DNA of 64,000 bases from Candidatus Peregrinibacteria bacterium (GTDB lineage Bacteria; Patescibacteriota; Gracilibacteria; Peribacterales; Peribacteraceae): contig JAYUSS010000131.1 in the NCBI GenBank assembly GCA_043755535.1, positions 10,829-74,828 of the forward strand. Reading direction: 5' to 3'. Under the pieces are notes generated by a model. The model made no database searches, had not been told where the DNA came from, and saw only the letters and a program-made list of their open reading frames with translations. The position numbers and the translations under genes are program-made. Within the stretch, counting starts at the first letter, position 1; each line of letters starts with the position of its first letter. Shown piece by piece: positions 3-36,246 of this stretch.

Positions 3-3000
3 GCGACGAACAACATTCGTTCGTCGGGATCGTTGATTCTTTCCGGAGCGCAACCGGTGCTGACAGGCACCTATGACACAACCGGCACTGCCCAAGGAGT
101 CACCGTCGCCGGTCGTTACGCTTATGTCGCGGACGGTATAAGCGGACTCCAGATTGTTGCTACCGGTATTCCTGCATCACCGTCGCTCGTTGGTACCTAT
201 GACACAACCGGCACCGCCTACAGCGTCTCCGTTGCCGGTCGTTACGCGTACGTTGGAGACAATACGAGCGGACTCCAGGTCATCGACATCAGCACGCCTG
301 CATCTCCCACATTGGCCGGCACCTACGACACAACCGGCGACGCCTACGGCGTCACCATTGCCGGTCGCTACGTCTACGTCGGAGACGGTACGAGTGGTCT
401 GCAAGTCGTTGGCATACAGGGCATCGACGCACCCAGCGCAACCATCGGCGCAATCGAGACCCATAGCTTGAATGTCCGTGAATCCGCACGCATCAACGCC
501 AACCTGACGGTCGATCGCGGACTCACGGTGGGAGACGGCTTGTATGTCTACGGCCAAACCTCCATGCGCGCCTTCTCCGGATCGGCCCTTACCCTGTCAA
601 CACAGGATCGCGGAGGTGCACCCGCCCTCAATGTCCGCGGCACCATCTCCGGTTCGCTCATTACGCAGAACGGTGCGGGAAGCAACTACTTCTTGGGAAA
701 TCTCGGGATCGGTACTACGACTCCCAAGGCCCGCTTCACCGTCGTCGGCTCCGGTGCCTTTACGGGAACACTCTCCGGTTCTGCATTGAACATTCAAGGA
801 GGAACGAGTTACGTGCTCGGGAACCTCGGCATCGGCAAAACATCCCCTTCGACAAAGCTCGATGTGCTGGGCACCATCTCCGGCTCCCTCATTACCCAGA
901 ACGGAGCGGGAAGCAACTACTTCTTGGGGAATCTCGGCATCGGCGATACAACCCCTGCATCACTCTTTACTGTTGGGAACGGAGACCTCTTCCGAGTGGA
1001 TACAGATGGTCATCTGGGAATGGGAACGGCACCTCTCGCTCAGCAGTTAGTGCGCATTATTGCCACGACAAGCGGAGGCACTGGGCAGGCTGGTATGGTT
1101 GTTTTAGTAACTGGCGATTCAAGCGGAACATCATCAATCGATGGAATATCAGCACAAATTGCAACCTCCGCAGCCGCATATACAGTCGCCACTGCGCGAG
1201 GTTTGCGCATCAATGATGCGACACTCGGTGCGGGGTCGGCCATCACGGCGCAGGTGGGTGTGGATGTCCTGGATCAGACAAGGGGAACATCGAACTACGG
1301 ACTCCGCTCGCTGGTGACATCGGGAACCAATAAATGGAATATCTATGCATCTGGTACTGCACAGAATTACTTGGCAGGGAATCTTGGCATCGGCAAAACG
1401 GTCGCCGCCACCAAGCTCGAAGTTGTCGGTACGATCTCTGGCTCCCTCATTACCCAGAACGGGGCTGGGAATAACTACTTGATGGGGAATGTGGGCATCG
1501 GTACCACGGCACCCAAAGCCCTGCTCGACGTCGCCGGCACCATGTCCGGAAAGATTCTGGTCCTGAGCAGGCTCCAGAACATCGGCGCCACCCAGAGCGC
1601 GATCTGTGTCACCGCCACCGGTGCCATCCTCAAAAACGGCGGCACCAGCACCTGTCTCGTTTCATCTCTGCGCTTCAAGCATGACGTTGCGAGCCTTGAT
1701 AACAATGCCCTCTCCCTCATCGGCGCCCTCCGGCCTGTTTCCTACCGCGACAATGCGACAAACATTCTGAACGTCGGTCTCATCGCCGAAGAAGTGCAGC
1801 AGATCGATCCCCGTCTCGTCTTCTACGAAGCCGACGGTACGACGGTCCGCGGTGTGAAATACGAGAACTTCACGGCGCTGCTTGCCAAGGGCATCCAAGA
1901 ATTGAACACGCGCACGAGCGGCATCACCGCCAACTCAGGCACGACCATCAGCTCCTCTACCGGCAACGGTGCAGCAAGCCTTCTGACCCTCACATCCAAT
2001 GTTTCCTCCACCGGCAATACCGTGCTACGCGTCAACGCGTCGGGTTCTGTCTTCACGGACGGCACCTACAACAGTTCCGGTGCCGACTACGCAGAATGGT
2101 TCTACAGCAAGGATACTCTGAAGCAGGGCGAAGTCGTCTGTATCGATATTACCAAGAACAATGCGGTGGAACGCTGCAAGAGCGACGCCGACAGCAATGT
2201 GATGGGTATCGTCTCCACCAACCCCGCCTTCATTGGAAATAGCATTGGCGGAGCAAGTGGCATCATTCCTCCGGGCTACGCGCTCATCGGTCTCATCGGA
2301 CAGGTTCCTGCCAAGGTCATAGCCGAGGATGGTGAGGCGATCCGTCCGGGAGATGCACTGACTGCCGCCGCGATTCCGGGCTATGCACGCAAGGCAAAGG
2401 CAGGTGAATCCACTGTCGGTGTCGCCCTTGAAGGGTTGGCATCCGGCAAGGGAACGGTCAATGTATTGATCTCCCGCCGCAACAGCTCCATGACCGTCGA
2501 CGCCGTCGGACAGAAGGTCTTGGACACGATCGCGTCAATGGAAATCGAAGATGAAGTGCAGATCATGGTCAGTGCGGCACTCGGAGATCTCAATGTGGAT
2601 GATCAGATCACCGCAGAGGTGACACGGCAGATCGAGGTGATTGCTGCGCAGAATGCGGATATCGAGACGATGAAACTGGATATCGCATCCCTGAAGACGC
2701 AGATCGCCGGTATGGGATCATCTACGGGTACGGGCACCGCCGCGCTGGGCGGCGTACAGACGTTCGATTCGAACGTCTCTACATTGGAAATCGATGGCAC
2801 ACTCGTGACTGGAGGCAATGCAAGAATTGGAGGCGATCTCACCATCGACGGCACCCTCAATGCCTCTTCCCTCTTTGTCCCGAATGGCCTGACTATTGAT
2901 GGAGGAGTGGTGATGCAAGGACTCTTGGATGCACAGAATCTGCATGTATCCGATGAAGCGATCATTGATGGAACACTTACCATCAATGGAACCTTGAACC

Positions 3001-3887
3001 TTGCATCGGGTGCAACCTTGAATCTCGGTTCCGGCGCCCTGACGATGGATCAATTGATTGTCGAGAATGCACTGTTCGTGATGGGTGATATCACCATCAA
3101 GGGCATGGCCACCTTCCTGGGCGACATCAACGTGCAGGGTGAACTCGTCATGAGCAACAAGTACGCAGGCTTCGCGATGATCCCGAAAAACGGAACATCT
3201 GTGACGATCTACTTCGGATCCGGATTCAAAGCGACACCGGTGGTAAGTGTCACGCCAAATGACTTCGTCTTCACAGCCTGGAGAACGGCACCTGTCACAC
3301 AAACCGGATTTACGATCGAACTCGCAGGACCCGCAGACCGCGACGTCACCTTCTCCTGGATCGCGCTGGGTGTCTCTAACCCTGTAATGCTCAATGCAGA
3401 ACTGACGGATGAGGGAACGATCATCTTCCCGCTCGCTTCGGACAACATTCCTGTGTCCTCCAACATGGCATGGAACGCCTGCATCCGCAACATCACGATG
3501 CTCGATGAATCCGGACAGCCACTCTCCTGTGCTCGTTACCACGATGCCTACACCTGGACACACCCGGATCTGCAGATCAGTTTCGTCTGGAACACATCCA
3601 TGACTCCTCCACTCCTCCAATTGCCTGCGGGCTACACCGCACGAGTGACGGAAGATGCGCAGGGCATCATTGATGCGATTAGTGGATCGGAGAATCCGGC
3701 AGCAGGCGCCAGCCCTGATCCTGTCGTCGAAGAGACTCCTGCCGAGGAACCTGTTGTAGAACCTGTTGTGGAAGTGGCTCCTGCAGAAGAACCAGCTCCG
3801 GAACCAGAGGGAACGCCGGAGGAAGAACCTGCTCCCGAAGAAGCGCCGGTGCCGGCTGAGGGGGCAACGGAGAGCCCGGCGATCTAA
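3..3887 (+). CDS. Giant mosaic cell-surface protein, 5' end open to window edge
   Basis: No in-frame stop back to nt 3; the TTG at 33 is only the ORF-track start. LVIVD-like repeats (GRYAYVADGISGLQIV x3). At least 4 copies of a GTISGSLITQNGAGSNYFLGNLGIG tail-fibre-like repeat. Internal peptidase-S74/intramolecular-chaperone-like segment (LRFKHDV..GLIAEEVQQIDPRLV..VKYENFTALLAKGIQEL, nt ~1660-1925). Then a coiled coil, beta-helix-like repeats, an H-type-lectin-like segment and a Pro/Glu-rich tail. Confidence 0.75.
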   Translation, partial: ATNNIRSSGSLILSGAQPVLTGTYDTTGTAQGVTVAGRYAYVADGISGLQIVATGIPASPSLVGTYDTTGTAYSVSVAGRYAYVGDNTSGLQVIDISTPASPTLAGTYDTTGDAYGVTIAGRYVYVGDGTSGLQVVGIQGIDAPSATIGAIETHSLNVRESARINANLTVDRGLTVGDGLYVYGQTSMRAFSGSALTLSTQDRGGAPALNVRGTISGSLITQNGAGSNYFLGNLGIGTTTPKARFTVVGSGAFTGTLSGSALNIQGGTSYVLGNLGIGKTSPSTKLDVLGTISGSLITQNGAGSNYFLGNLGIGDTTPASLFTVGNGDLFRVDTDGHLGMGTAPLAQQLVRIIATTSGGTGQAGMVVLVTGDSSGTSSIDGISAQIATSAAAYTVATARGLRINDATLGAGSAITAQVGVDVLDQTRGTSNYGLRSLVTSGTNKWNIYASGTAQNYLAGNLGIGKTVAATKLEVVGTISGSLITQNGAGNNYLMGNVGIGTTAPKALLDVAGTMSGKILVLSRLQNIGATQSAICVTATGAILKNGGTSTCLVSSLRFKHDVASLDNNALSLIGALRPVSYRDNATNILNVGLIAEEVQQIDPRLVFYEADGTTVRGVKYENFTALLAKGIQELNTRTSGITANSGTTISSSTGNGAASLLTLTSNVSSTGNTVLRVNASGSVFTDGTYNSSGADYAEWFYSKDTLKQGEVVCIDITKNNAVERCKSDADSNVMGIVSTNPAFIGNSIGGASGIIPPGYALIGLIGQVPAKVIAEDGEAIRPGDALTAAAIPGYARKAKAGESTVGVALEGLASGKGTVNVLISRRNSSMTVDAVGQKVLDTIASMEIEDEVQIMVSAALGDLNVDDQITAEVTRQIEVIAAQNADIETMKLDIASLKTQIAGMGSSTGTGTAALGGVQTFDSNVSTLEIDGTLVTGGNARIGGDLTIDGTLNASSLFVPNGLTIDGGVVMQGLLDAQNLHVSDEAIIDGTLTINGTLNLASGATLNLGSGALTMDQLIVENALFVMGDITIKGMATFLGDINVQGELVMSNKYAGFAMIPKNGTSVTIYFGSGFKATPVVSVTPNDFVFTAWRTAPVTQTGFTIELAGPADRDVTFSWIALGVSNPVMLNAELTDEGTIIFPLASDNIPVSSNMAWNACIRNITMLDESGQPLSCARYHDAYTWTHPDLQISFVWNTSMTPPLLQLPAGYTARVTEDAQGIIDAISGSENPAAGASPDPVVEETPAEEPVVEPVVEVAPAEEPAPEPEGTPEEEPAPEEAPVPAEGATESPAI

Positions 3888-3910: not shown

Positions 3911-4024
3911 CCTCCCCAGCTGCTAGACAACCTCCCCCACCCCTAGCCCCCGTAAAGGGGCGTTGCCCCACGGGGCTTTTACGCCCTCCCCAGCTGCTAG
4001 ACAACCTCCCCCACCCCTAGCCCC
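3911..4024. repeat. Perfect 40-bp direct repeat (3911-3950 = 3985-4024) separated by a 34-bp GC hairpin spacer
   Basis: cctccccagctgctagacaacctcccccacccctagcccc occurs twice. The last 20 nt of each copy equal the terminus of the DUF559 cassette. Confidence 0.9.
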
Positions 4025-4473
4025 TCCCCCGCGAGGGGAGGGGAACATACATATGATCGGATAGAATGAAGAACATTTTCAATATCATGAAGTACTTCTT
4101 CATTGATAAATCGGATGATTTCGATTCCCTCATTATTCATTTCATCCGTACGGATCGCATCATTTTCCTTTTGAGTTGAGTCATCATGAATGGAGCCGTC
4201 CACTTCAATACCTAATTTTGCTTTGTCACAATAGAAATCAAGGATCCTCCCTCTCACCGGGTTCTGCCGCCGAAATCGGACACCGAGCTGATCGAAGCGC
4301 AGAAATTTCCACAAATATTCTTCCGCCTCTGTCGGATTCTTCCTCATCTCACGAACATGCTGCAGCACTGATCCGTTCACCTGAGGTTTTACCTTGTATT
4401 CCTTTTCTTCGTGCTCCCTTCCCCTCGCGGGGGAAGGGCTGGGGATGGGGGAGGGCATGGGTAAAGAAGACAT
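3997..4473 (-). CDS. DUF559 (Vsr-like PD-(D/E)xK) endonuclease domain protein
   Basis: [53 protein letters not shown] matches the DUF559 pattern. The ATG (4473) and TAG (3997) both lie just outside the repeat-bounded cassette. Confidence 0.75.
   Translation of the reverse strand: MSSLPMPSPIPSPSPARGREHEEKEYKVKPQVNGSVLQHVREMRKNPTEAEEYLWKFLRFDQLGVRFRRQNPVRGRILDFYCDKAKLGIEVDGSIHDDSTQKENDAIRTDEMNNEGIEIIRFINEEVLHDIENVLHSIRSYVCSPPLAGEGLGVGEVV
4005..4454 (-). mobile_element. DUF559 endonuclease cassette, copy 1 (450 bp between CCTCCCCC / GGGGGAGG termini)
   Basis: Same outer termini and the same CCCC(T)CGCG(A)GGGG palindromic subterminal blocks as the copy at 10265-10717. The sense frame is open across the whole element. 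Confidence 0.6.
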
Positions 4474-6022: not shown

Positions 6023-6218
6023 ACGCCAATCGTAGCATGAGACGGCTTGTCGGCCGTAGCCCAGAGGCGAAGGCTGAGGAAGGGCATGGGGAGAAGGCGG
6101 ATCGCCTTGGAGTATAGAGCAAATTGCCTATACTATGCCCCGCCTTGGAGAGGTCGCATAGATGGCGCCTTGTGCGCCATCGCACATCCTCATCATTGGT
6201 CGTTCTGTCTTAATCTTT

Positions 6219-6308
6219 GGAGAGGTCGCATAGTGGCCTAGTGCGCACGCTTGGAAAGCGTGTAGATCCGCAAGGGTCTCGGGAGTTCGAATCTCCCCCT
6301 CTCCGCCA
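6219..6308 (+). tRNA. tRNA-Ser (anticodon GGA), CCA encoded
   Basis: Folded by hand. Acceptor GGAGAGG/CCTCTCC, 3-bp D stem, anticodon stem CACGC/GCGTG with loop TTGGAAA, long variable arm (GATCC..GGGTC), T arm GGGAG TTCGAAT CTCCC. Confidence 0.9.
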
Positions 6309-6442
6309 TTCGACTCGCAGCCGCTGCGCGGCAATGCTCGCTCATGGTCGTCGCGCCTCTTGGCGCTCCGGCCATTCCTTTACTGAATCGAATGACCCTG
6401 AGCGAAGCCGCAGCGGAGTCGAAGGGCCCTTTTCGATTACAA

Positions 6443-6467
6443 CAAAAACAGCCCCGAAGGACTGCTT
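6443..6467 (-). terminator. Intrinsic terminator downstream of the 6488-6808 gene
   Basis: The minus strand reads agcagtccTTCGgggctgttttt: a stem with a tetraloop followed by a T-run. Confidence 0.65.
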
Positions 6468-10113: not shown

Positions 10114-11142
10114 ATGTCCATCGTCACAAAAACCGGCGACAAAGGCGAAACCGGCCTGTTTGGCGGACAGCGAGTACCCAAAGACGACGTACGGATCGAA
10201 ACGATCGGCACGGTGGATGAACTGAATGCTGTGCTTGGGATGGTCATCGCATCGCTGCGGGCGACCTCCCCCTTCCCCCAGCCCCTTCCCCCGCGAGGGG
10301 CAGGGGAGCGCCATGAGGAAGACTATAGATGCAACCATCAAATCAATGGATCGGTGCTGGAGCATGCTCGGGAAATGCGTAAAAGTCCGACGAACGCCGA
10401 AAAGTATTTATGGCATCATTTACGCTCCGATCAACTTGGCATCCGCTTTCGTAAACAGCATCCTATAGGAGGGTATATTCTGGATTTTTACTGCCCGAAA
10501 GCAAAACTCGGCATCGAAGTAGATGGCCCGATTCATGATGATCCTATGCGGCAAGAAGCAGATGATCGGAGGACAGATAAACTCAGTGACGAAGGAATAT
10601 TCATTCTGCGCTTTAAAAATGAGGAAGTGTTGTACGACACAAAAACAGTACTCAACACCATCCGCATGCACATTCATCCCCCTCCCCTCGCGGGGGAGGG
10701 GTTAGGGGAGGGGGAGGCTGTTGATGAAAAGGAAAAGTTAGGAATAGGAGAGGATTTGATCAGAATGCTCACAAAAATCCAAAACACCCTCTTCACCCTC
10801 GGTGCCGACCTCGCGACCCCCCACGAAAACAATAAAGCCGTAGTCCCGCGTATCGAAAAAGAGCACATTGAGGAAATTGAAGGGTGGATTGCGACCCTCG
10901 AAGAAACCCCCTTACCCCCCTACTTCATTTTGCCCGGGGGATCGAAATCTGCAGCCGAACTACACCTTGCACGGGCAATGTGCCGACGAGCTGAACGGTG
11001 TACTGTCACACTCTCCAGGCGCACAGAGATCGGATCAAACGTCGTACAATACTTGAATAGACTCAGTGATTTCCTATTTCTCGCGTCTTTAGAGGCAAAT
11101 CGCCTCGCAAACGTCGAGAATATTCGCGTTTCGTATTTCTAG
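10114..11142 (+). CDS. PduO-type ATP:cob(I)alamin adenosyltransferase interrupted in frame by a DUF559 domain
   Basis: N-terminus [34 protein letters not shown]-terminus [50 protein letters not shown]. About 151 extra codons lie between them. Confidence 0.8.
10265..10717 (+). mobile_element. DUF559 endonuclease cassette, copy 2 (453 bp), inserted in frame in the adenosyltransferase gene
   Basis: Bounded by CCTCCCCC..CCCCGCGAGGGG (left) and CCCCTCGCGGGGGAGGGG..GGGGGAGG (right), which are inverted copies of each other. The interior encodes [39 protein letters not shown]. Confidence 0.65.
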
Positions 11143-33416: not shown

Positions 33417-33592
33417 GAATTTGAGGCGGGAGTCAAAGCCCACAAAGCCACTTTTTAGCGGCGCCGCTAAAAAGTACAGGCGGGTGCCGGGAAAAACGAT
33501 TACCCTCAAGTGCGGTCACTGATCGGGAAGATTTCTCCCAAAAAATGATCGGAAATCCTGTCAGATTCCGTCTCTCTGCTAGTCTTAGATAC

Positions 33593-34747
33593 ATGCGCAC
33601 CATTCTCCCTCTCGCTACTCTTGCCCTTTTGCTTGCCGGCTGTACCCAGCCGACTGTTCCACCAGGGCACTCGAGTTCCTCTGCCTCCTCTGAATCTTCT
33701 GCATCCTCTCCGTTAACCCTCAACTCCCCGCAGGTCGAGATCTTCGCCAAGGACTTATCCGGTGCTCGCGTGATTGTGCGCGACGGCTTCGGGAATTTTT
33801 GGGTGAGTCGCCCAAAGGCAGGGGTAGTGACGGTGCTGGAAATCGGTGATGACGGAAAAGTTCTGCAGCAGTATGACGCAATCAGGAACTTGAGAAATCC
33901 CCACGGTCTTGCATTCAACCCCGCCGGAACCCATCTGTACGTCGCCGAGGAGACTTCTATTAAGGAGTACCTCGTCTATAGCGACGCCCCGGTGAAGACG
34001 ATCGCCACACTTCCCGCCGGTGGTAGCCATGTTACGCGGACGATTGAATGGGGCCCGGATGATCGTTTGTATGTTTCCATCGGTTCTACCTGCAATTCCT
34101 GTATCGAGAAAAATCCGCTGCATGCGACGATCATCTCCATGAATCCCGACGGGTCCGACCATAAGACCGTCGCGACGGGGCTGCGTAATTCCGTCTTTTT
34201 CGATTGGAGTTATGTAGACGGACAGATGTATGCGACGGAGATGGGACGGGATGGACTCGGGAACGATCTGCCGCCGGATGAGATCAATAGGATCAAGCCG
34301 GCTTCGTCTGCGGACTCCGCCGCGCCAAGTTATGGTTGGCCGTATTGCTTTGGCGATCGCATACGCGATTCGCACGTTGCTGGTGATGTGGACTGTGCTA
34401 CAACCGAACCGCCGCATATCGCGCTCCCAGCGCACGTTGCACCACTTGGCCTCGCGTTTATCCCCGAGGAAGGCTGGCCGGAAGCATGGTGGTACGATCT
34501 TCTTGTCGCAGAGCACGGCTCAACCCAAATCGGCAGCGTAAAGGTTGGCTATAAGGTCGTGCGTATTCCTTTGGATGCGAATGGCAACCCCGAAGGAGAG
34601 CCGGTCGACTTCCTGACGGGCTTTTTAGAGGGAGAGACGGTGAGAGGCCGACCGGTGGATATTATGGTTGAACCGGGTGGGACGATGTACGTGACGGATG
34701 ATAAGGAGGGGGTGGTGTGGAGGGTGGGGGTGGGGGAGGAGATGTAG
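33593..34747 (+). CDS. Lipoprotein, PQQ-dependent sugar (glucose/sorbosone) dehydrogenase-like beta-propeller
   Basis: Lipobox MRTILPLATLALLLAGC and a Ser-rich linker. Propeller motifs (PHGLAFNP.., SIGSTCNSC, GLRNSVFFDW, YGWPYCFG). Confidence 0.7.
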   Translation: MRTILPLATLALLLAGCTQPTVPPGHSSSSASSESSASSPLTLNSPQVEIFAKDLSGARVIVRDGFGNFWVSRPKAGVVTVLEIGDDGKVLQQYDAIRNLRNPHGLAFNPAGTHLYVAEETSIKEYLVYSDAPVKTIATLPAGGSHVTRTIEWGPDDRLYVSIGSTCNSCIEKNPLHATIISMNPDGSDHKTVATGLRNSVFFDWSYVDGQMYATEMGRDGLGNDLPPDEINRIKPASSADSAAPSYGWPYCFGDRIRDSHVAGDVDCATTEPPHIALPAHVAPLGLAFIPEEGWPEAWWYDLLVAEHGSTQIGSVKVGYKVVRIPLDANGNPEGEPVDFLTGFLEGETVRGRPVDIMVEPGGTMYVTDDKEGVVWRVGVGEEM

Positions 34748-34791: not shown

Positions 34792-36246
34792 ATGTTCGAG
34801 CAAGCCTTTAAAAACATCGATGATATTCTGCGGAAAGATGCAGGGGTGAGCTCAGAACTTGATTATATTGAGCAAACATCGTGGATACTTTTCTTGAAGT
34901 ATTTGGAAGATTGGGAGGAAATGAAAAAGAAGGAAGCGGATCTTTCGGGAACGATGTACCGCGAAATTATCCATACGCCTTTTCGGTGGGAAACATGGGC
35001 GGTTCCTAAAGGGCCAGATGGGAATCCAGATCATACCAAGGCAATGACTGGTGATGACCTTCTCGATTTCGTGAATGATCAACTCTTTCCATATCTTAAG
35101 AAGTTTAAAATTGATGCTGAGAGTTCCGATACGATCCAGTATAAGATCGGCGAAATTTTTAGTGAATTGAAGAATAAAATCCAAACCGGATATACGCTGC
35201 GTAGTATTCTTGATGTTGTGGATAAGATGCACTTTCAAACAAGCGCAGAGAAACATGAATTATCTCACCTCTATGAAAGCAAAATTAAGAACATGGGAAA
35301 TGCCGGGAGAAATGGAGGAGAATACTACACACCACGCCCACTTATTCGTTCCATTATTAAAGTCGTTGATCCACACATAGGACAGACTATTTATGACGGT
35401 GCATGCGGTTCTGCAGGGTTTTTAGTCGAGGCTTTTGATTATTTAAAGGAGACGAAAGGTAAAAAATTAAGCACCGATGATCTGGAGACTCTCCAGAAAA
35501 AGACATTCTTTGCAAAAGAGAAGAAGTCCTTGGCATACATCATTGCCATCATGAACATGATTTTGCATGGTATTGATGCTCCGAATGTCGTTCATACCAA
35601 TACGCTGGCAGAAAATATTTTGGATATTCAGGAGAAGGATCGTTACGACGTGATTCTTGCGAACCCGCCGTTTGGGGGGAGTGAGCGCCCGGAGATTCAG
35701 CAGAACTTCCCGATTAAAACAGGGGAAACTGCGTATCTCTTTTTGCAGCATTTTATCAAGAAGCTAAAAGCAGGTGGCAAAGCAGGTATTGTTATTAAAA
35801 ATACATTTCTTTCGAATACAGATAACGCGTCCGTTTCGTTGCGTAAGTATCTACTGGAGAGCTGCAACCTGCATACGGTGCTAGATCTTCCGGGTGGAAC
35901 CTTTACCGGGGCAGGAGTGAAAACGGTGGTGCTATTTTTTGATAAAGGAGCACCGACAAAAAAGGTGTGGTATTACCAATTAAATTTGGATAGGAATTTG
36001 GGGAAGACAAATGCATTAAGTGAGAAAGACCTAGCAGAGTTTATAGAGTTACAGAAGGCGCAGGGTAGTTCTGCAAATTCATGGAGTGTAGATGTGGGTG
36101 ATGTTGATCAATCGACATTTGATTTGTCAGTGAAGAATCCGAATGCAAAGGGAGAGGTGGAGTTGAGGGTTCCCAAAGAGATTTTGGAGGAGATGAAGAG
36201 GCTGGATGAGGAGACGACTAAAATTTTAAGCATTATTTTGAAATGA
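34792..36246 (+). CDS. hsdM: Type I restriction-modification system, methyltransferase subunit
   Basis: HsdM N-terminal domain (FKNIDDILRKDAG..EQTSWILFLKYLED), AdoMet motif (YDGACGSAGFL), and NPPFGG catalytic motif (ILANPPFGGSE). Confidence 0.95.
   Translation: MFEQAFKNIDDILRKDAGVSSELDYIEQTSWILFLKYLEDWEEMKKKEADLSGTMYREIIHTPFRWETWAVPKGPDGNPDHTKAMTGDDLLDFVNDQLFPYLKKFKIDAESSDTIQYKIGEIFSELKNKIQTGYTLRSILDVVDKMHFQTSAEKHELSHLYESKIKNMGNAGRNGGEYYTPRPLIRSIIKVVDPHIGQTIYDGACGSAGFLVEAFDYLKETKGKKLSTDDLETLQKKTFFAKEKKSLAYIIAIMNMILHGIDAPNVVHTNTLAENILDIQEKDRYDVILANPPFGGSERPEIQQNFPIKTGETAYLFLQHFIKKLKAGGKAGIVIKNTFLSNTDNASVSLRKYLLESCNLHTVLDLPGGTFTGAGVKTVVLFFDKGAPTKKVWYYQLNLDRNLGKTNALSEKDLAEFIELQKAQGSSANSWSVDVGDVDQSTFDLSVKNPNAKGEVELRVPKEILEEMKRLDEETTKILSIILK

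Follow-up and report, generated by a model that had tools for sequence, protein, structure and literature searches.

The window analysed here, a stretch of 64,000 nucleotides from contig JAYUSS010000131.1 of a Candidatus Peregrinibacteria bacterium (Peribacteraceae), contains a gene for a PduO-type ATP:cob(I)alamin adenosyltransferase that carries, in frame and internally, a cassette encoding a DUF559 nuclease between two inverted hairpin units. This cassette probably belongs to a family of selfish DUF559 elements, old but dynamic, which host proteins tolerate as a linker-tethered domain insertion. The original prediction, made from the sequence alone, was of a mobile, in-frame and unspliced cassette rather than an old domain fusion; the occurrence of such cassettes in unrelated host genes and the presence of empty sites support this, and from these sequence comparisons we infer mobility and a mechanism.

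A nuclease cassette in frame within the PduO gene

The host gene and the inserted cassette (copy 1) have the following parts, all on the plus strand:

10114..11142 (+): host gene, PduO-type ATP:cob(I)alamin adenosyltransferase, 342 aa, with the cassette in frame (PF01923, fold superposition)
10114..10264 (+): host N-terminal part, aa 1-50, ATP-binding N-terminus and helix 1 (alignment with insert-free orthologues; AlphaFold2 helix 26-50)
10265..10308 (+): left terminal unit of copy 1, C-rich tail and hairpin, translated (repeat arms, hairpin; predicted local distance difference test score, pLDDT, <50 at aa 52-74)
10360..10671 (+): DUF559 / Vsr-like PD-(D/E)xK nuclease core, aa 83-186 of the open reading frame (ORF) (PF04480; PDB 3hrl; nonsynonymous and synonymous differences; pLDDT)
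10677..10717 (+): right terminal unit of copy 1, hairpin and G-rich tail, translated (repeat arms, hairpin)
10718..11142 (+): host C-terminal part, PduO helices 2-5 (Pfam, orthologue alignment, AlphaFold2)

Searches against Pfam matched the ORF at 10114-11142 to PF01923 (Cob_adeno_trans, E 7.8e-54) in two stretches, between which aa 83-186 match PF04480 (DUF559, E 2.7e-31, profile positions 5-107 of 109), so that the profile check proposed with the original prediction returned both families and bore out its reading of a PduO-type N- and C-terminus around about 151 extra codons. The outer ends of the cassette are 453 bp (151 codons) apart, a multiple of three as had been stated, and the host frame is kept open throughout with no stop. 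The insert lies after helix 1 of PduO. The host part retains every residue that is invariant in an alignment of 12 PduO sequences and superposes, across the insert, on the structures 3ke5, 3ke4, 2zhy and 2r6t with target-normalised template modelling (TM) scores of 0.89-0.91 (Foldseek).

The AlphaFold2 model of the chimera has a mean pLDDT of 86.7, with PduO helix 1 at residues 26-50, helix 2 from residue 205 and a confident nuclease domain at ~79-187 (per-block pLDDT 86-97), joined by linkers at 52-74 and ~195-204 that are disordered in the model (pLDDT <50 at 52-70, 72-74 and 195-199). Both the nuclease and PduO are thus predicted to fold, the insert forming a loop between helix 1 and helix 2, in the place after helix 1 where it had been expected, and the model predicts that the insert stays in the mature protein as an extra domain. 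No second PduO gene was found in the 64-kb window.

Regarding the integrity of the assembly, the independent metagenome contig L001 (JGI 3300020195) has, in syntenic surroundings, the same right junction from DUF559 to PduO, and because this junction recurs in an independent assembly a chimera is very unlikely. Contig L001 begins, at its position 1, within the nuclease, as fits an assembly that broke at a repeated element.

Features of splicing elements were sought at protein and RNA level. No Hint or intein family of Pfam was detected in the ORF at E up to 0.01, the junction peptides ...RAT|SPFPQ... and ...GEGE|AVDEK... were judged to be without intein splicing residues (including the C-terminal His-Asn), and there is no room for a Hint domain because just ~40 residues lie outside the nuclease fold. 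For group I or II introns and ribozymes, Rfam matches in the window at gathering scores comprise three tRNAs only, and at E up to 1 the region 10150-10800 gave just three chance-level hairpin matches, the ORF filling the whole insert. The earlier statement that the insert shows no splicing motifs therefore stands on the Pfam and Rfam results for Hint/intein and intron/ribozyme families. A known transposase, of the DDE or another type, was likewise not found, DUF559 being the sole Pfam domain of the cassette.

A free-standing second copy

A second copy with the same termini had been noted at 4005-4454. Its terminal repeats were confirmed, with the qualification that it forms a free-standing ORF outside any host gene. 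Its features are:

3997..4473 (-): copy 2, free-standing 158-aa DUF559 ORF running through both terminal units (PF04480, E 5.2e-29)
4412..4454 (-): left terminal unit of copy 2, tail and hairpin (repeat arms)
4005..4047 (-): right terminal unit of copy 2, hairpin and tail (repeat arms)
3911..3950 (no strand assigned): solo tail, 74 bp from copy 2, a perfect 40-nt duplicate of 3985-4024 (direct repeat)

The arms of copy 2 (4005-4047 and 4412-4454) are 43 nt long and 88% complementary, and span 450 bp from outer end to outer end. The ATG lies 19 nt beyond the left end and the TAG beyond the right end, at codon bases 6-8; start and stop are both in the flanks, and the cassette therefore brings neither. 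This agrees with the predicted insert lacking a start and stop of its own, copy 1 having an open host frame and copy 2 borrowing both from its flanks. Internally, copies 1 and 2 are about 64% identical (60-63% at amino acid level), and their ends are nearly identical.

Each copy of the 40-nt repeat beside copy 2 (3911-3950 and 3985-4024) consists of 20 nt of flank and the outer 20 nt of the right tail of copy 2; a duplication, or a second cassette end, could have left the repeat behind as a remnant. The 34 nt between the two (3951-3984) are palindromic, with a GCCCC-AC-GGGGC hairpin followed by TTTT, and resemble a terminator of the large ORF 33-3887.

Nucleotide-level constraint on the terminal units

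The ends of copy 1 were resolved as follows, the right unit being the mirror image of the left:

10265-10281: left tail, CCTCCCCCTTCCCCCAG
10282-10292: 5' arm of the left hairpin, CCCCTTCCCCC
10293-10296: loop, GCGA
10297-10306: 3' arm of the left hairpin, GGGGCAGGGG
10678-10701: right hairpin, with CCCCCTCCCC at 10678-10687, TCGC, and GGGGGAGGGG at 10692-10701
10702-10717: G-rich right tail

The arms and hairpins confirm that the ends are inverted copies of each other and each self-palindromic, as first described, and each "terminal inverted repeat" (TIR) is better seen as one unit of ~40 nt made of a C-rich tail and a GC hairpin of 9-11 bp. Over 34 nt, the inverted arms 10265-10298 and 10684-10717 show 71% complementarity; the pair that matches best is 10276-10307 with 10677-10708 (32 nt, 81%). 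With up to three mismatches, the 18-mer core CCCCTCGCGGGGGAGGGG occurs in the 64 kb solely at the four ends of the two copies (chance expectation 0.01; 0 of 100 shuffles gave 5 matches). The left unit is free of stops in all three sense frames and the right unit has one TAG, out of frame; the units are translated as Pro-rich stretches on the N side and Gly-rich stretches on the C side.

The same layout was found in the DNA of five further cassettes from other hosts and assemblies, in genes for TsaB (L203), MurD (L205), Sua5 (L206), GT4 (L207) and RibE (L208). All seven cassettes have outward-pointing tails, a left stem of the CCCCTTCCCC type, a right stem of the CCCCTCCCCC type and a fixed orientation of the units relative to the ORF. 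The stem variants TT/AA, TTT/AAA, TCT/AGA and TCCT/AGGA remain complementary through compensatory T-to-A changes. Complementarity of a stem with its own partner averages 9.6 of 11 against 8.65 with other partners, and 0 of 20000 shuffles reach the observed total; this covariation was scored with a partner-shuffling script, the MAFFT alignment of the hairpins being out of pairing register on account of differing loop lengths.

Each of the three codon phases is used to read the left unit somewhere among the seven cassettes (e.g., PLPPRG, SPSPARG, PFPPRG), and the left units of the two window copies, almost identical as DNA, are read in two different phases, PLPPRGAGE in copy 1 and SPSPARGRE in copy 2. 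The DNA of the C-terminal linker is 82-89% identical between copies (40 of 45 nt for copy 1 and copy 2), with synonymous sites of the core saturated (proportion of synonymous differences, pS, 0.70-0.86). Because of the variable phase, the conservation of the linker DNA and the compensatory changes in the stems, the constraint on the ends acts on nucleic acid and not on peptide. The stem pairs seen are Watson-Crick only, with no G-T pair, which fits a DNA palindrome slightly better than an RNA helix, the numbers being small. The two ends can also pair with each other in single-stranded form, giving a stem of ~40 bp that closes the whole cassette (minimum free energy -177.8 kcal/mol, z -4.65).

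Filled, empty and solo states of the PduO site

The nearest PduO proteins come from uncultured bacteria, those with names being Candidatus Peribacteraceae. Alignment of the orthologues, suggested earlier as a way to find empty sites, showed the site to be polymorphic: P0002, encoded on contig L001 and syntenic downstream, has a DUF559 cassette at the same PduO site, of which the right junction alone is visible, and P0003-P0006, four of the five closest orthologues, lack the insert and share, in the C-terminal block, 68-79% identity with the window protein and with P0002. The original prediction would have failed had all close orthologues been filled, or had further copies and empty sites been absent; both were found, together with a solo unit. 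The two filled genes do not clearly form a closest pair. The best 80 metagenome PduO loci are all ordinary, insert-free genes of ~500 bp, in a scan whose query was the whole chimera and whose matches are dominated by the generic PduO pattern TKTGDKGE.

In P0003 (contig L002) a solo unit, TCTCCCCCTATCCCCCAGCCCCTTTCCCTCGCGAGGAGAAAGGGGGGG, lies exactly at the PduO insertion site and is orthologous to the left unit of the window. In the window and five related loci (~150 kb) units are found at cassette ends apart from this one, and because no other solo unit occurs in these ~150 kb it is most simply read as the footprint of a cassette loss and, less likely, as a precursor.

The cassette in other host genes

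A profile built from three cassette copies was compared with 1.84 billion representative proteins and found 27848 DUF559 relatives. Proteins of at least 250 aa make up 22 of the best 25 and 65 of the best 150 of these matches, in a ranking that favours linker-bearing matches since the query contained the linkers. In most of the long proteins among the best 25 the profile, linkers included, matches internally; the exceptions are tandem DUF559 arrays (P0180, P0186 and P0199) and a protein cut at its N-terminus (P0193). Pfam searches of 30 of the 65 long proteins detected an unrelated host family beside DUF559 in 29, many of them matched on both sides of the insert. A word-indexed protein search with the insert alone returned 58 distant matches and missed the query's own protein, and is uninformative on hosts. 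The host families in or beside which Pfam places DUF559 are:

Metabolic and cell-envelope hosts: MurD, RibD, riboflavin synthase (RibE), GT4 glycosyltransferase, OMP decarboxylase, NAD epimerase, amidohydrolase and LTD proteins
Translation and RNA-modification hosts: RsmG, TsaB, TsaD, Sua5, an aminoacyl-tRNA synthetase anticodon-binding domain and a radical-SAM/TRAM enzyme
DNA repair and restriction-modification hosts: UvrC, HsdS, HsdR, Type ISP, and Eco57I-type and N6_N4 methylases

At the junctions in these hosts the peptides are rich in Pro on the N side and in Gly on the C side, and sometimes occur in tandem. Where source names are given they are Candidatus Peregrinibacteria, Peribacteraceae and Patescibacteria group, the UvrC host being from Ignavibacteria. 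The nuclease cores are not grouped by host gene: the core in TsaB P0192 is nearest to that in TsaD P0197 (62% identity), the core in TsaB P0190 is nearest to that in the GT4 protein P0194 (57%), and the L001 PduO copy is nearest to the free-standing copy of the window (74%) and not to the window PduO copy (62%), in a core tree that is shallowly resolved with most other identities near 50%.

The 433-aa riboflavin synthase P0210 and the LTD protein P0188 (aa ~24-45) have nuclease-free, unit-like Pro/Gly inserts at a second position (e.g., PQPPSPEGSLSPQPPSPRGRGG), and solo units can therefore sit in frame in coding sequence. Other arrangements include an Eco57I-type methylase of 1214 aa (P0181) with two separate DUF559 inserts and tandem linker repeats (RERGLGDHAL four times, PSPREGVGEGSGVRAEL three times), and tandem DUF559 domains, three in P0180 (377 aa) and two in P0186 (297 aa). 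In P0177 (264 aa) the stretch VPIESLYPGDFVLARDGRLHRVQRV...WLAESHCVL, upstream of DUF559 and after Pro/Gly repeats, has a sequence that may resemble the N-terminal part of a Hint domain or intein. Two apparent cases of polymorphism were set aside: P0335 (206 aa, in the 90% cluster of an RsmG chimera), considered as an empty-site partner, is a shorter gene call starting inside the nuclease, and the differences in cluster 6 concern the start codon only.

The nuclease

The motif D-F...E-x-D-G-x-x-H is kept in copy 1, in which ILDFYC... aligns with YIVDFMC...LIVEADGGQH of PDB 3hrl (E 5.4e-16), a solved DUF559 protein; judged by this alignment, the D...E.D..H nuclease motif is intact. NCBIfam PRK09767 matches at E 4.5e-21, under its equivalog cut-off. 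Among the three nuclease cores compared (copy 1, copy 2 and L001) the proportion of nonsynonymous differences (pN) is 0.14-0.24 with pS saturated, copy 1 differing from the two others at pN 0.22-0.24 and pS 0.70-0.86. These values indicate that the cassette nuclease is under purifying selection and, as far as substitution patterns tell, is kept functional. Matches to homing-endonuclease models are weak (PADLOC HEase, E 1.2e-4; PHROG 3339, E 1.6e-4), and a role as a component of a defence system was rejected, the PADLOC matches (DpdF, mREase_II) being weak only.

The hairpin unit outside Peregrinibacteria

In species-representative genomes the 18-mer was found at at least 120 loci, mostly in Beta-, Alpha- and Gammaproteobacteria, Planctomycetaceae and Anaerolineae; the matches listed come from genomes other than the window's own and other than those of Peregrinibacteria. 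Some of these matches in GC-rich genomes may be due to chance. An extended consensus of ~40 nt, CCCCTCTCCCCCAGCCCCTCCCCCGCGAGGGGGGAGGGG, is common to most of the listed loci and is not due to chance; it is often clustered, most copies being solo or clustered. The CCCCTCTCCCCCAGCCCCTCCCCCGCGAGGGGGGAGGGG repeat (loci L003-L122, e.g., L076 at 6137-6466, L098, L108 and L109) occurs, dispersed and clustered, in many Betaproteobacteria (Accumulibacter, Rhodocyclaceae, Gallionellales), in Azospirillum and, as an AAGGG variant, in Planctomycetaceae and Anaerolineae.

A DUF559 gene adjoins the unit in 4 of 120 loci among the matches listed. In Sulfurisoma (L116) a DUF559 gene lies between inverted units with their tails inward, and in L039 one is flanked by several units. 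In these genomes the unit behaves like a dispersed repeat of the repetitive extragenic palindrome (REP) or bacterial interspersed mosaic element (BIME) type that is sometimes associated with DUF559. Viral contigs yielded six distant DUF559 relatives, of which L212 alone (IMG/VR UViG_3300025304_000157) has flanking hairpins, its DUF559 gene at 1906-2400 having CCTCCCCC...GGGGGAGG hairpins on both sides. The viral contigs examined give no evidence for a phage vector.

Other features of the window

A solitary G-rich stretch resembling a cassette tail, GGAGGGTGGGGGTGGGGGAGG, lies at 34719-34739 at the 3' end of ORF 33545-34747; it precedes a putative type I restriction-modification methylase gene (34792-36246, assigned by eye), and no hairpin or DUF559 lies nearby. 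The G+C content is ~0.50-0.58 in 1-32000 as compared with 0.34-0.50 in 32000-64000, and the sign of the GC skew flips near 30-32 kb. The shift could reflect a genomic island, a replication landmark or a mis-join, the cassette region being unaffected.

Interpretation and alternative explanations

Under the favoured reading of a selfish, splicing-free cassette family, the element would enter coding DNA and persist only after an in-frame landing in a permissive surface loop, where it would be translated as a flexibly tethered extra domain that is not spliced out. The nuclease may act on the palindromic units, which it would meet as symmetric duplex sites or extruded hairpins, and another cassette may be the template or recombination partner in the repair of the resulting break, with the conserved ends as homology arms. 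Loss would occur when the two ends recombine or slip against each other, and may leave a solo unit. Compact genomes of the Candidate Phyla Radiation (CPR) have little intergenic space, which may account for the predominance of in-frame copies in them and of free-standing copies and solo units in larger genomes. That the cassettes constitute a distinct and undescribed class of mobile element, a splicing-free nuclease gene colonising coding sequence whose ends double as recognition or recombination sites and as stop-poor Pro/Gly linkers allowing the host protein to fold about the insert, is a more tentative proposal, for which the chances fall somewhat short of even. On that proposal the cassette would be a third route of gene parasitism beside introns and inteins, and a natural driver of domain insertions in the compact genomes of CPR bacteria.

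Several results weigh against a mobile cassette family. Every copy compared is old and has saturated synonymous sites, the two most similar cassettes share 74% identity, and no sign of recent movement was found among them. No consistent direct repeat that would mark a target-site duplication flanks the seven cassettes, and the best 80 metagenome PduO loci contain neither a new filled site nor a close pair of filled and empty sites. At the PduO site itself, copy 1 and the L001 copy differ at pN 0.24, near the pN of 0.20 of the host gene (C-terminal part, window vs L001: 71% amino acid identity, pS 0.68), and such similar divergence of cassette and host fits, on these sequence comparisons, long vertical co-inheritance. 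Insertion sites recur across lineages, in RsmG six times (among them P0184, P0187, P0191, P0196 and P0209) and in riboflavin synthase six times (P0195, P0200, P0201, P0210, P0212 and P0248), a recurrence that could stem from site-specific homing or from old vertical inheritance and not from transposition. Where the host is a restriction-modification enzyme, DUF559 may be one of its working domains, and the linker-favouring ranking of the profile search also counts here.

Regarding the alternatives, the cassette may be a classical site-specific homing endonuclease gene that cuts the uninterrupted host site, its hairpins being linker or expression elements and not the substrate. The VSR/DUF559 clade includes the proven homing endonuclease I-Bth0305I as well as "fractured gene" homing genes (PMC3424549, PMC2677866), and homing would account for orthologous sites filled across lineages (RsmG, riboflavin synthase, and PduO in the window and L001), for the similar divergence of cassette and host at the PduO site and for the weak matches to PADLOC HEase and PHROG 3339. 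It is a live rival, though an unlikely one: relationships among the nuclease cores do not follow the host gene, copy 2 with the same ends lies outside host genes, near-identical units flank DUF559 genes in distant phyla (L116 and L039), and a pure linker role explains neither the conservation of the ends at nucleotide level nor the compensatory stems and variable frame.

The hairpins could instead form an independent repeat family, similar to REPs or to MITEs (miniature inverted-repeat transposable elements), with DUF559 nested in or homing into the repeats and the L002 solo unit representing the original insertion. The abundance of the unit in other phyla and the rarity of an adjoining DUF559 gene there (at least 120 loci and, among the matches listed, 4 of 120) are in line with this, as are the solo unit at the L002 PduO site, the solo tail beside copy 2, and the extra or tandem units in P0184, P0194, P0181, P0210 and P0188. 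We regard it as a live rival, though an improbable one, given that units in the window and the five related loci are confined to cassette ends and that the systematic left/right difference and fixed orientation in seven cassettes are expected of one integrated element.

An old functional domain fusion, vertically inherited, with the repeat ends as coincidental low-complexity linkers, has very little to recommend it. It is compatible with purifying selection on the nuclease core, with the similar divergence of host and insert between the window and L001, and with a nuclease domain being functionally sensible in restriction-modification hosts. It has to contend with hosts as unrelated as cell wall, riboflavin, tRNA modification, rRNA methylation and cobalamin enzymes, with insert-free genes in four of the five closest PduO orthologues and in the best 80 metagenome loci, with nucleotide conservation and stem covariation that are not expected of linkers, and with a free-standing copy having the same ends.

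Removal of the insert after transcription or translation in the manner of an intron or intein, or an assembly artefact at the junctions, can be practically dismissed: the pairing of the single-stranded ends would bring the junctions together and an in-frame insert is what inteins have, but Pfam and Rfam detected no Hint/intein or intron/ribozyme, the ORF fills the element, in dozens of hosts the frame continues open into the host part downstream, which RNA splicing would not need, and the right junction is reproduced in an independent assembly.

Comparison with known systems

In the searched literature that mentions DUF559, and in a Peribacteria genome paper (PMC4736985) and PMC2677866, no in-frame, TIR-bounded DUF559 cassette is described, and the suggestion that DUF559 had not been reported as such an element is thus upheld as far as published descriptions go. 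Known Vsr-like homing endonucleases lie in group I introns, lie between split-intein halves, or split a gene into two ORFs (PMC2677866). In function the nearest analogues are inteins, Rickettsia palindromic elements and REP/RAYT systems, and the cassette departs from every one of them in a defining feature. The cassette shares with these (EDxHD) enzymes, such as I-Bth0305I and those of "fractured genes", the VSR/DUF559/DUF2726 clade and selfish insertion into protein-coding genes, and differs in being fused in frame on both sides, without start or stop, and in having inverted hairpin units.

Inteins with a homing endonuclease are similar in that a selfish nuclease lies in frame in housekeeping genes, the frame continues, orthologues are patchily occupied and sites recur. 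Unlike inteins, the cassette has neither Hint domain nor splicing residues and is predicted from its modelled structure to be retained in the protein, its nuclease is DUF559/Vsr-like and not of the LAGLIDADG or HNH type, and it has inverted hairpin ends, which are absent from inteins.

Rickettsia palindromic elements (RPEs) are short, non-autonomous repeats that encode no enzyme; by this description the cassette, with palindromic units flanking a conserved nuclease ORF, is set apart from them. REP elements and their REP-associated tyrosine transposases (RAYTs) form REPtrons, in which the RAYTs are relatives of HUH/Y1 single-strand transposases and the location is intergenic. Here the likeness extends to a nuclease gene between inverted GC-rich hairpin repeats, to a repeat that is also solo or clustered in some genomes (in Proteobacteria and other phyla, but not dispersed in the ~150 kb of Peregrinibacteria loci), and to units that are homogeneous within a genome and variable between genomes; the differences are an enzyme of the PD-(D/E)xK and not the Y1/HUH (IS200/IS605-like) type, and translation inside genes. 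With TIR-bearing insertion sequences and MITEs the cassette shares inverted arms of 32-43 nt (81-88% complementary), a single enzyme frame and a possible solo-end footprint, but it has no known transposase, target-site duplication, start or stop, and its length is a multiple of three and in frame.

Significance for DUF559 and CPR genomes

Known selfish nucleases that dwell in genes spare the host by RNA splicing, by protein splicing or by leaving two working gene halves, and the cassette seems to use none of these, being apparently just translated and cushioned by linkers that its repeats encode. If this is true, it would represent a new strategy by which mobile DNA persists in coding sequence. 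It would also explain many of the "DUF559 domain-containing" annotations of housekeeping enzymes in CPR bacteria, e.g., RibE (P0195 and P0201) and GT4 (P0336). The natural permissive insertion sites and linkers would be of use for protein engineering. For the large and uncharacterised DUF559 family, the palindromic units would provide a testable substrate, and the family would be linked to a widespread, REP-like GC-rich repeat.

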